Below are positions 4,688-46,257 of a stretch of 64,000 nt of DNA, in pieces. The stretch comes from Escherichia coli (GTDB lineage: Bacteria; Pseudomonadota; Gammaproteobacteria; Enterobacterales; Enterobacteriaceae). Position 1 is the stretch's first letter, and each line of letters opens with the position of its first letter. The stretch lies in the NCBI RefSeq assembly GCF_003334305.1, contig NZ_QOWS01000008.1, one strand, 5' to 3'. The notes beneath the pieces are model-generated. The model had not been told where the DNA came from, searched no databases, and worked only from the letters and a program-made list of their open reading frames with translations. The position numbers were made by a program, and so were the translations under genes.

Positions 4688-5746
4688 TTATTCAGGCGTA
4701 AAGTGGCGTAAATGTTGTACCGTGGCAAGCCACGCTGCCACCCAGCCAATCATCGAGCATACCAGCAGCAATAGCAGGCATTCATCGAACGATAAGCCAT
4801 TGATATCAAACTTCGTTCCGAAAACCTGTGCCACTTCTGCAACCGCCGATGACAAACGCAGTACCAGAATTTCTGACAAAATTAATGACAGCAATGCGCC
4901 AGAAAATCCCAGCAGTGCGCCACCATACAGGAACGGGCGAAGGATGAAACCATCCGTCGCACCAATCAGTTTCTGCACGTTGATGGAGTCACGGCGAGCA
5001 AAGATGCTCAGACGTACGCTGTTGCCGATGACGAGGAACACTGCCGCCACCATCAACACGCCGATCATCGCCGAAACGCGCCCGACCAGCCCGGTCAACG
5101 CCGCCAGACGGGCAAACCAGCTGTCATCCATCCGCACTTCGTCAATGCCGTTAATCTGCGTGATACGATCACGCAGCGTATTGAGTGATTCCGTCCCCTG
5201 AAAATCGAGTTTCGGGATCACCACCGCCACTGCCGGAAGCGGGTTTTCTTCCAGCATATCCAGCGCACCACCAAAACCAGACCAGTTACGGAACTCGCCC
5301 AGTGCGTCTTCACGAGAAAGATAGTTCACTTTCTCCACGCCTTGCTCGGCCTGCAACTGTGCCACCACGCCCGCAGCGGCGTCATCGTCCAGCGTTTTTT
5401 GCAAGTAAACAGTGATTTGCGGTGACGGATAATACTGCGTCGCCGCCTGATTAACGTTTTTGTACACCATATAACAGACGCTGGGCAGCGTCAGGGAGAT
5501 GGCGATAACCATCACCGTTAAAAACGTGGCGAACGGTTTGCTTTTCAGATCCTGCAATGCGCCGTGGAAGGCATAGCGCACCTGTTCGTTGAAAACGTTG
5601 GTTTTACGATTTACCGGTTTTGGCGAGGATTTCGCGCGTTTCGGGGCGTTACGACCGCCGTCGCCAGAGCCGCCGACCGATTTACGGAAGCGATCAAGAC
5701 GCCCGCCAAACTGCCGAATATGATTGATTGCATCGCGCTTATTCAT
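4688..5746 (-). CDS. ftsX: Cell division ABC transporter permease-like protein FtsX
   Basis: Translation [22 protein letters not shown]... (352 aa); start chosen at MNKRD; overlaps ftsE stop by a few nt. Confidence 0.92.
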
Positions 5747-43905: not shown

Positions 43906-45258
43906 ATGACTAAACACTATGATTACATCGCCATCGGCGGCGGCAGCGGCGGTATCGCCTCCATCAACCGCGCGGCTATGTACGGCCAGAAATGTGCGCT
44001 GATTGAAGCCAAAGAGCTGGGCGGCACCTGCGTAAATGTTGGCTGTGTGCCGAAAAAAGTGATGTGGCACGCGGCGCAAATCCGTGAAGCGATCCATATG
44101 TACGGCCCGGATTATGGTTTTGATACCACTATCAATAAATTCAACTGGGAAACGTTGATCGCCAGCCGTACCGCCTATATCGACCGTATTCATACTTCCT
44201 ATGAAAACGTGCTCGGTAAAAATAACGTTGATGTAATCAAAGGCTTTGCCCGCTTCGTTGATGCCAAAACGCTGGAGGTAAACGGCGAAACCATCACGGC
44301 CGATCATATTCTGATCGCCACAGGCGGTCGTCCGAGCCACCCGGATATTCCGGGCGTGGAATACGGTATTGATTCTGATGGCTTCTTCGCCCTTCCTGCT
44401 TTGCCAGAGCGCGTGGCGGTTGTTGGCGCGGGTTACATCGCCGTTGAGCTGGCGGGCGTGATTAACGGCCTCGGCGCGAAAACGCATCTGTTTGTGCGTA
44501 AACATGCGCCGCTGCGCAGCTTCGACCCGATGATTTCCGAAACGCTGGTCGAAGTGATGAACGCCGAAGGCCCGCAGCTGCACACCAACGCCATCCCGAA
44601 AGCGGTAGTGAAAAATGCCGATGGTAGCCTGACGCTGGAGCTGGAAGATGGTCGCAGTGAAACGGTGGATTGCCTGATTTGGGCGATTGGTCGCGAGCCT
44701 GCCAATGACAACATCAACCTGGAAGCCGCTGGCGTTAAAACTAACGAAAAAGGCTATATCGTCGTCGATAAATATCAAAACACCAATATTGAAGGTATTT
44801 ACGCGGTGGGCGATAACACGGGTGCAGTGGAGCTGACACCGGTGGCAGTTGCAGCGGGTCGCCGTCTCTCTGAACGCCTGTTTAATAACAAGCCGGATGA
44901 GCATCTGGATTACAGCAACATTCCGACCGTGGTCTTCAGCCATCCGCCGATTGGTACTGTTGGTTTAACGGAACCGCAGGCGCGCGAGCAGTATGGCGAC
45001 GATCAGGTGAAAGTGTATAAATCCTCTTTCACCGCGATGTATACCGCCGTCACCACTCACCGCCAGCCGTGCCGCATGAAGCTGGTGTGCGTTGGATCGG
45101 AAGAGAAGATTGTCGGTATTCACGGCATTGGCTTTGGTATGGACGAAATGTTGCAGGGCTTCGCGGTGGCGCTGAAGATTGGTGCAACCAAAAAAGACTT
45201 CGACAATACCGTCGCCATTCACCCAACGGCGGCAGAAGAGTTCGTGACAATGCGTTAA
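43906..45258 (+). CDS. gor: Glutathione reductase
   Basis: 450 aa; FAD-binding GGGSGG, redox-active disulfide [13 protein letters not shown]. Confidence 0.96.
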
Positions 45259-45311
45259 ATGTTAAAGGGCTAAGGGTAGTGTGCTCTTAGCCCTTAATTA
45301 CGTTTCCGCTA

Positions 45312-45395
45312 TCAGTTCAGAAGCTGAAGCAGAAAGCGGATCAGTTCCAGCAGCGCAATTAACGCCCCAAGAACGATGATTGCTTTATCAATCAC
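45312..45395 (-). CDS. dinQ: Type I toxin peptide DinQ (27 aa, GTG start)
   Basis: Reverse complement reads GTG ATT GAT AAA GCA ATC ATC GTT CTT GGG GCG TTA ATT GCG CTG CTG GAA CTG ATC CGC TTT CTG CTT CAG CTT CTG AAC TGA = (M)IDKAIIVLGALIALLELIRFLLQLLN; lies between gor and arsR as expected for dinQ. Confidence 0.75.
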   Translation of the reverse strand: MIDKAIIVLGALIALLELIRFLLQLLN

Positions 45396-45469
45396 CCGTT
45401 TTCTCCATGCGATGGAGTGAGAATGCATCCGCTTACTCATCCACTGCCTGTCACGGCGCATGCCCTATT

Positions 45470-45701
45470 GTTAGATAATGGCATTCTCACTCCGGCCAGA
45501 GCATCAGTTAACGGCACCACCCGTACTTCTGACCAGGACTTTGAAAGCGTTTATGCGCATTACCAGAGTGAAAATGCCTCAGAGCTAACTGGATAATCAT
45601 ACAGTACATTCAGGTTATAAAACCAGCATGTCCTTGCAATAGTTTCAGTATGGTATTAGCATTGATGCGTTAGATAATGGCATTCTCACTCCAGCCAGAG
45701 C
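45470..45701 (+). ncRNA. agrB: agrA/agrB antisense sRNA region of the dinQ type I toxin-antitoxin locus (boundaries approximate)
   Basis: Two ~33-nt direct repeats gttagataatggcattctcactcc(g/a)gccagagc at 45470..45503 and 45669..45701, complementary to ggagtgagaatgc in the dinQ leader (45415..45427); exact transcript ends cannot be set from sequence alone. Confidence 0.5.
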
Positions 45702-45723
45702 CACCAACTCAGGGCTGGAAAGT

Positions 45724-45751
45724 AAAAAACCGACGCAAAGTCGGTTTTTTT
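45724..45751 (+). terminator. Intrinsic terminator, bidirectional form
   Basis: aaaaaaccgac-gcaaa-gtcggttttttt: stem flanked by an A-run and a T-run. Confidence 0.7.
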
Positions 45752-45903
45752 ACGTCCTGATTCAGACCTCCTTTCAAATGAATAGCCAACTCAAAATTCA
45801 CACCTATTACCTTCCTCTGCACTTACACATTCGTTAAGTCATATATGTTTTTGACTTATCCGCTTCGAAGAGAGACACTACCTGCAACAATCAGGAGCGC
45901 AAT

Positions 45904-46257
45904 ATGTCATTTCTTTTACCCATCCAATTGTTCAAAATTCTTGCTGATGAAACCCGTCTGGGCATCGTTTTACTGCTCAGCGAACTGGGAGAGTTATGCG
46001 TCTGCGATCTCTGCACTGCTCTCGACCAGTCGCAGCCCAAGATCTCCCGCCACCTGGCATTGCTGCGTGAAAGCGGGCTATTGCTGGACCGCAAGCAAGG
46101 TAAGTGGGTTCATTACCGCTTATCACCGCATATTCCAGCATGGGCGGCGAAAATTATTGATGAGGCCTGGCGATGTGAACAGGAAAAGGTTCAGGCGATT
46201 GTCCGCAACCTGGCTCGACAAAACTGTTCCGGGGACAGTAAGAACATTTGCAGTTAA
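45904..46257 (+). CDS. arsR: Arsenical resistance operon repressor ArsR
   Basis: 117 aa; metal-binding/HTH motif ELCVCDLC, MSFLLPIQLFKILADETRLGIVLLL... Confidence 0.95.
   Translation: MSFLLPIQLFKILADETRLGIVLLLSELGELCVCDLCTALDQSQPKISRHLALLRESGLLLDRKQGKWVHYRLSPHIPAWAAKIIDEAWRCEQEKVQAIVRNLARQNCSGDSKNICS

Follow-up and report, generated by a model that had tools for sequence, protein, structure and literature searches.

The locus at 45265-45753 of the window, the 64-kb stretch of Escherichia coli DNA analyzed here, is very probably a chromosomal, SOS-regulated dinQ/agr type I toxin-antitoxin locus with one antitoxin gene, situated between gor and arsR. Of its two near-identical direct repeats, the first (repeat 1) is the toxin mRNA's own antitoxin target site and not an sRNA gene; the second (repeat 2) forms the 5' end of the sole agr gene. 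The dinQ/agr system is already known and annotated (dinQ by PGAP, AgrB by Rfam), and the value of the present analysis is corrective: the locus holds one antitoxin gene and a target site, not an antitoxin pair, and an "agrA" annotation at 45470 or probes directed against 45414-45426 would mislead. The anatomy, copy number, complementarity and folding behavior of this allele were determined in silico; its features are as follows.

43906-45258, plus strand: gor, the flanking gene proximal to dinQ
45265-45295, both strands: hairpin between the convergent gor and dinQ; gor terminator on the plus strand, putative dinQ terminator on the minus strand
45312-45395, minus strand: dinQ coding sequence, 27 aa, GTG start, single-transmembrane toxin (open reading frame, NF041472, RefSeq)
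45403-45408, minus strand: element 4 (mRNA A182-G187), including GGAG at 45403-45406 (mapped from PMC5066626)
45412-45426, minus strand: element 3 (mRNA U167-U178), the anti-Shine-Dalgarno, given as "ggagtgagaatgc" in an earlier note on this DNA (mapped from PMC5066626)
45471-45502, minus strand: Agr-binding site of the dinQ mRNA (G88-A119), which holds element 2 (alignment; PMC3567139, PMC5066626)
45484-45496, minus strand: element 2, within the Agr-binding site
45562-45574, minus strand: element 1 (mRNA nt 16-28), which locks element 2 in the full-length +1 RNA of K-12 and is lost on processing at +44 (mapping; PMC5066626)
45587-45606, minus strand: LexA operator TACTGTATGATTATCCAGTT, identical to the K-12 operator
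45634-45662, plus strand: agr promoter, TTGCAA, 17-nt spacer, TAGCAT, identical to the K-12 agrA promoter region
45670-45753, plus strand: single agr antitoxin sRNA (Rfam RF02891, fold, duplex energy)
45724-45750, plus strand: agr terminator, A6-CCGAC-GCAAA-GTCGG-T7, the terminator stem of the Rfam AgrB model
45904-46257, plus strand: arsR, the other flank of the dinQ/agr locus

The numbering of PMC5066626 was mapped onto the window by the relation coordinate = 45590 - nt, and the published bases at the element ends agree (U16, G88, G94, A119, U167, U178, A182, G187); C28 and G106 of the published numbering hold in K-12, the window having U28 and A106. The dinQ +1, the +44 processing site (which maps to 45546) and the agr transcription start were transferred from K-12 by alignment or published numbering.

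The source strain is E. coli, though not K-12; E. coli strain A7, with a RefSeq dinQ annotation, matches the region 45250-45910 at 100% identity, and almost every complete E. coli genome does so at 90-99%. The earlier note was correct in naming the locus a dinQ type I toxin locus, as the peptide matches NF041472 and the sRNA matches RF02891, and the hydrophobic 27-aa minus-strand reading frame that it had proposed is present at 45312-45395; translation from the GTG gives VIDKAIIVLGALIALLELIRFLLQLLN followed by a stop, a peptide identical to K-12 DinQ that scores 54 bits against the NCBIfam model NF041472 toxin_DinQ (cut-off 30, E = 1.4e-14). Membrane toxicity and SOS induction have been demonstrated for the identical peptide in K-12 (PMC3567139). 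A Shine-Dalgarno (SD) sequence, GGAG, lies 8 nt 5' of the GTG, inside a CUCCAU/AUGGAG hairpin that is able to close in predicted folds. The dinQ terminator of K-12 is placed a few nt 3' of the gor stop codon (PMC3567139). Transcription, processing, repression and toxicity of this allele are expected, by analogy with the K-12 experiments, to follow those of the K-12 system.

A plus-strand reading frame of 59 aa at 45417-45596, which carries the name "hypothetical protein" in several RefSeq genomes (WP_001296816, WP_001362224), is probably no real gene but a spurious call, as it is merely the antisense of the conserved dinQ RNA leader.

The direct repeats lie at 45470-45502 and 45669-45701, are 33 nt in length and are identical at 32/33 positions (97%); the sole mismatch, at repeat position 25, is G (45494) vs. 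A (45693). These are the two repeats of about 33 nt with one G/A difference reported previously, with the first ending at 45502 instead of 45503. That report had further assigned the locus an agrA/agrB architecture in which both repeats are antisense sRNA genes (agrA at ~45470 and agrB at ~45669), each pairing with the dinQ leader at 45414-45426; the near-identity of the repeats, the presence of two agr genes in K-12, and the fact that the DNA of both repeats is the reverse complement of 45414-45426 are in its favor, yet it is considered highly improbable on several independent grounds. In the MG1655 annotation agrA begins 275 nt and agrB 506 nt past the start codon of dinQ, and the MG1655 repeat has three copies, at +75, +274 and +505 from the dinQ start, the first of which is inside the dinQ 5' UTR. 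Of these three the window has only those at +75 and +274, and pairwise alignment with MG1655 gives a clean gap of 231 bp, exactly the agrA-to-agrB spacing; repeat 1 is therefore the homolog not of agrA but of the dinQ-internal repeat of K-12, named the "agrAB repeat of dinQ" and bound by the Agr RNAs (PMC3567139, Fig. 1C legend), and the window has only one agr gene. A K-12-type tandem of agrA and agrB, 231 bp apart and 5' of the dinQ promoter, was not found in the window, and repeat 1 sits within the dinQ transcription unit.

The two repeats also differ in what surrounds them. The sequence beginning at repeat 2 (45670-45753) scores 109.5 bits against the Rfam AgrB model RF02891 (gathering score 40) and covers model positions 1-84 of 84, while the corresponding segment from repeat 1 (45471-45556) reaches only 23.8 bits, below the gathering score, with its stems broken; the locus has only one AgrB match above threshold. 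The agr RNA displays the expected layout of a single-stranded 5' seed, an internal hairpin and a rho-independent terminator (45724-45750), and folds at -29.2 kcal/mol (z = -5.9); a hypothetical plus-strand RNA of repeat 1 gains no stability over shuffled sequence (z = -0.66). A register-specific sigma-70 scan detected TTGCAA-17-TAGCAT 5' of 45670 and no site 5' of 45471, and repeat 1 has no terminator. A generic promoter and terminator scan was also silent 5' of repeat 1; this silence is uninformative because the same scan missed the real agr promoter (8/12 matches, threshold 9/12) and the agr terminator. The remaining argument against two antisense genes is one of strand. The 13-nt sequence GGAGTGAGAATGC at 45414-45426 matches 45481-45493 and 45680-45692 exactly in reverse complement; the 64-kb window holds three occurrences of GCATTCTCACTCC, two on the plus strand (45481 and 45680) and one on the minus strand (45414-45426), vs. 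0.05 expected by chance, and none of 100 shuffles reached three. The inverted match that had been placed at 45415-45427 in the dinQ leader does exist, one position away, but not as an antisense pairing site: the dinQ mRNA at 45426-45414 and the plus-strand agr RNA both read GCAUUCUCACUCC, therefore the two cannot pair there. The earlier proposal that the RNAs of both repeats bind at 45414-45426 had inverted the strand logic; the real Agr site is mRNA nt 88-119.

With repeat 1 as the target site, nt 1-32 of agr are complementary to dinQ mRNA nt 88-119 (window 45502-45471) with one A.C mismatch, the seed being complementary to its target at 32/33 positions. Duplex prediction, proposed by the earlier note as a check, has the RNA of repeat 2 pairing at nt 88-119, as opposed to 45414-45426, with a predicted energy of -58.0 kcal/mol for dinQ nt 87-120 (-58 to -59 across computations); the best agr site downstream of the repeat (mRNA nt 130-332, element 3 included) reaches only -21.8 kcal/mol. 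In this respect the locus does have an Agr antisense RNA, as had been claimed, and its match to the dinQ mRNA is near-perfect; the base-pairing between antitoxin and toxin mRNA that is expected of a type I system was obtained by computation (32/33, -58 kcal/mol). Pairing energies were computed for a 34-nt seed against defined mRNA segments; duplex folding of full-length RNAs was discarded as its energies are inflated through long interior loops.

A different concern is that the single agr could be a degenerate, non-functional agrA-like copy, so that dinQ would have no working antitoxin in this strain. In position and promoter the single agr corresponds to K-12 agrA, which does not repress dinQ and is experimentally inactive (PMC3567139, PMC5066626); the seed, however, fits its own dinQ target as the functional K-12 pair does, the computed energies being -58.2 kcal/mol for K-12 agrB:dinQ and -42.7 kcal/mol for K-12 agrA:dinQ. 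The sole mismatch of the window pair, A.C at repeat position 25, is likewise shared with K-12 agrB:dinQ, which is 30/31 complementary (PMC3567139). A degenerate agr is considered very improbable on this evidence, and the single agr is instead read as the antitoxin; repression of toxin translation and destabilization of the mRNA have been demonstrated for K-12 agrB (PMC3567139, PMC5066626), and by analogy agr would repress dinQ in this allele.

The A.C mismatch (45494 vs. 45693) recurs at 19 of 23 complete loci that were sampled; L008, L018 and L026, whose targets show no mismatch with their cognate copy, depart from it, as does the distal copy of L017. Each base of the G/A difference suits the helix of its own RNA, namely the agr hairpin CCAGCC/GGCUGG and the dinQ pair G26-C96.

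The 13-nt inverted repeat corresponds to the helix that elements 2 and 3 form within the dinQ mRNA (PMC5066626). Both arms lie in this mRNA, at nt 97-109 (45493-45481) and nt 164-176 (45426-45414), and the element 3 arm of this allele reaches nt 164. In K-12 the +1 RNA pairs element 1 with element 2, and a hairpin of elements 3 and 4 sequesters the SD; the +44 RNA lacks element 1, so that element 2 can pair with element 3 and the SD becomes accessible; when AgrB occupies nt 88-119, element 3 is released, the SD hairpin forms again and a substrate for RNase III arises (PMC5066626). This switch has been supported by SHAPE, mutagenesis, in-vitro translation, gel shift and RNase III assays (PMC5066626). 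For the window allele, partition function calculations give the 2:3 helix a probability of 0.00 in the +1 RNA and 0.55 in the +44 RNA; blocking nt 88-119 returns the helix to 0.00 and brings the SD hairpin to 0.93. The ViennaRNA minimum-free-energy fold of the +44 RNA keeps the SD hairpin and the SD has a mean unpaired probability of only 0.24, therefore the in-silico switch is partial, and the predicted folding supports the published model for this allele qualitatively only. The window allele lengthens the 2:3 helix to 13 bp and -24.7 kcal/mol, vs. 10 bp and -19.3 kcal/mol in K-12, which is why a 13-nt inverted repeat is visible here and a shorter one in K-12; the 1:2 helix is also longer, 17 bp and -31.2 kcal/mol vs. 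13 bp and -23.8 kcal/mol.

By this model, transcription of dinQ would proceed leftwards from ~45589 under the control of LexA, and in the full-length mRNA element 1 would pair with element 2 while the hairpin of elements 3 and 4 keeps the SD shut. Loss of the first 43 nt would free element 2 to pair with element 3 through the 13-bp inverted repeat, which would open the SD and allow the 27-aa membrane toxin to be made. The agr RNA would be expressed from a constitutive promoter, divergent from dinQ and without overlap, and its first 32 nt would pair with mRNA nt 88-119; Agr binding is predicted to displace element 3, so that the SD hairpin closes again and an RNase III substrate is formed.

The control regions of this model are conserved with K-12. 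A search for a LexA box near dinQ, also suggested previously, located the core CTGGATAATCATACAG at 45589-45604, the same as in K-12, where the operator has a heterology index of 4.83 (PMC3567139); the operator overlaps the dinQ +1 transferred from K-12 (45589) and a -10 box, TATGAT (45596-45601). A second, weak LexA operator with a heterology index of 13.82 has been described (PMC3567139); a candidate for it is CTGGTTTTATAACCTG at 45611-45626 on the minus strand, although its placement is uncertain. Expression of K-12 agrA from the agrA promoter sequence is constitutive by Northern blot and primer extension (PMC3567139). The bidirectional terminator that had been claimed at 45724-45751 is present at 45724-45750 and is structurally two-way, with a symmetric T6/T7 run on each strand, but only its plus-strand use is supported.

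The window locus shares with K-12 dinQ/agrAB (PMC3567139, PMC5066626) its site between gor and arsR, an identical DinQ peptide, LexA operator, SD hairpin and element 3, the four-element switch, the Agr hairpin and terminator, and the conserved A.C mismatch; it differs in having one agr gene where K-12 has two, and in five bases of the variable block of the dinQ target (AATGGCAT vs. AAGAACTC in K-12), which the window agr seed matches. A broader likeness exists to tisB/istR-1, where a LexA-controlled toxin mRNA is inert as a primary transcript and activated by 5' processing, and a divergent, non-overlapping antisense RNA binds the 5' UTR far 5' of the ribosome-binding site with cleavage by RNase III (PMC3567139); the sequences are unrelated, however, and IstR-1 blocks a ribosome standby site while Agr re-closes an SD hairpin (PMC5066626). 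The dql (dinQ-like) genes of Enterobacteriaceae chromosomes and plasmids, placed in the DinQ/AgrB family of T1TAdb (PMC8594479), share the logic of the 5' UTR elements; the window gene differs from these as a true dinQ ortholog at the canonical locus and not a dql paralog.

The single agr is a chimera with an agrA-type promoter and an agrB-type 3' flank, and most likely arose from a two-copy locus through unequal recombination within the agr bodies. The window is identical to two-copy strain 41 (L002) over the dinQ leader, the promoters and the proximal agr as far as its nt 30, and beyond agr repeat position 30 it follows the 3' flank of the distal copy of strain 41; this switch is the expected product of unequal recombination within agr bodies that are identical for ~65 nt. 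The one-copy strain 2011C_4037 (L024) retains the T of the proximal copy at repeat position 31 where the window has A; there are therefore at least two crossover points, which implies that the 231-bp deletion in L024 was independent. E. albertii and Escherichia sp. E1V33 likewise carry one agr, and E. whittamii carries two; the agr duplication is old, and one copy could be the ancestral state in some lineages rather than a deletion product.

A survey of 5,426 complete E. coli genomes places the one-copy form in context. The presence of two agr genes is signaled by the K-12 inter-agr spacer, which is missing from the window and occurs in 3,842/5,426 genomes; a tally of 9,260 chromosomal places for agr among 5,423 genomes agrees with this count. 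Short-read assemblies can collapse tandem repeats, and the one-copy state might on that account be an assembly collapse of the 231-bp tandem duplication; the spacer between gor and arsR, 645 bp in the window, would in that case be 876 bp. Such a collapse is scarcely credible, as 462 complete, mostly long-read genomes have this 661-bp configuration at >=99% identity, and 428 have agr with both of its flanks. The exact one-copy configuration, a genuine genomic arrangement by this evidence, accounts for 428-462 genomes, or ~8% of complete E. coli.

The survey also revealed loci with a larger loss. A total of 864 genomes (~16%) cover <80% of the locus query, and the two of these that were sampled (L005 and L006, one of them ST131) have a 199-bp deletion extending exactly from the dinQ-leader repeat to the agr repeat. 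This deletion (L005 1631-1860; window 45470-45668) removes mRNA nt 1 to ~119, elements 1 and 2, the LexA boxes and both promoters, and the dinQ coding sequence is still annotated by PGAP in the sampled genomes; these two samples suggest that an annotated but promoterless dinQ coding sequence persists in ~16% of genomes, ST131 among them. No prior description of the ST131 dinQ deletion was found in the literature searched; tisB/istR is likewise absent from phylogroup B2 (PMC9040746). The repeats may drive both kinds of deletion, the 231-bp event leaving one agr, as in the window, and the 199-bp event leaving a promoterless, dead locus, as in ST131.

Repeat positions 8-15 (window 45477-45484 and 45676-45683) are variable across loci L001-L027, and were compared between target and agr at the 23 loci from related genomes that have an intact dinQ promoter. 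At all 23, the dinQ target has a partner agr with at most two mismatches (G.U allowed) and a pairing energy of -53 to -67 kcal/mol; the second agr copy, where present, usually has 3-6 mismatches and -43 to -53 kcal/mol. Only E. whittamii (L017) departs from this, its two copies pairing to a similar degree with 1 and 2 mismatches and both at -59 kcal/mol. When the agr sets were shuffled among genomes the mean best mismatch rose from 1.22 to 2.68 +/- 0.28, and 0/5,000 shuffles were as low as observed, an outcome that is not a true probability because the genomes are related. The cross-matrix of targets and agr copies is block-diagonal with four classes, and each "non-cognate" agr fits the target allele of other strains: K-12 agrA (GATGGCTA), for instance, pairs with the GACGACTA dinQ target with one mismatch and two G.U pairs at -59 kcal/mol, and this target is that of E. 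albertii and of single-agr E. coli strains without arsR/arsB. For pairs across alleles, window agr with K-12 dinQ and K-12 agrB or agrA with window dinQ, the computed energies are -41 to -50 kcal/mol, similar to the inactive K-12 agrA:dinQ pair and far weaker than the cognate -58 kcal/mol. The 8-nt block is tentatively proposed, at somewhat less than even confidence, to determine specificity and to have split within Escherichia into at least four classes in which toxin target and antitoxin match; were this so, the second agr of two-copy strains would be the working antitoxin of another class and not decayed junk. No prior description of this allele co-variation was found in the literature searched, and T1TAdb lists AgrA only in some strains, the most stable asRNA pairing having been chosen (PMC8594479).

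The matched copy is distal in K-12-like strains and in strains with GTGGGCAT-type targets, and proximal in AATGGCAT-target strains and in two-copy E. coli strains with the GACGACTA target. The window target allele is found in 1,571 genomes, ~1,100 of which are estimated to have two agr genes, and the proximal copy is the matched one in 5/5 sampled two-agr genomes with this target (L002, L013, L022, L023, L025). Lineages differ in which copy, proximal or distal, is the cognate one, and this points to short gene-conversion tracts between the three repeats of the same orientation as a possible way in which specificity switches. The population comparison further suggests that the label of agrB as antitoxin and agrA as degenerate does not transfer between strains. 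The co-varying octamer provides a natural set of compensatory variants for tests of sRNA-target specificity; the allele co-variation and the repeat-mediated deletions are modest by-products of a known system.

Outside this comparison, Escherichia sp. MOD1-EC7003 (L021 4600-5500) has a decayed dinQ remnant adjoining gor and no agr; the peptide is diverged and without a GTG start (GIVKAIIIPGVLIV...), and its leader gives way to unrelated sequence directly after element 3. A total of 46 plasmid places in E. coli genomes match the locus query, and the sole plasmid example examined (NZ_JCAUKO010000003.1 5644-5681) matches 38-39 nt of the agr body (window ~45683-45721); the plasmid matches are presumably the dinQ-like (dql) toxin-antitoxin loci that have been described on plasmids. 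Elsewhere in the 64-kb window, full-length Rfam matches were obtained for GadY at 62526-62639 (150 bits) and the ES205 sRNA at 56676-56747 (105 bits), both of which are expected for that part of the E. coli chromosome.
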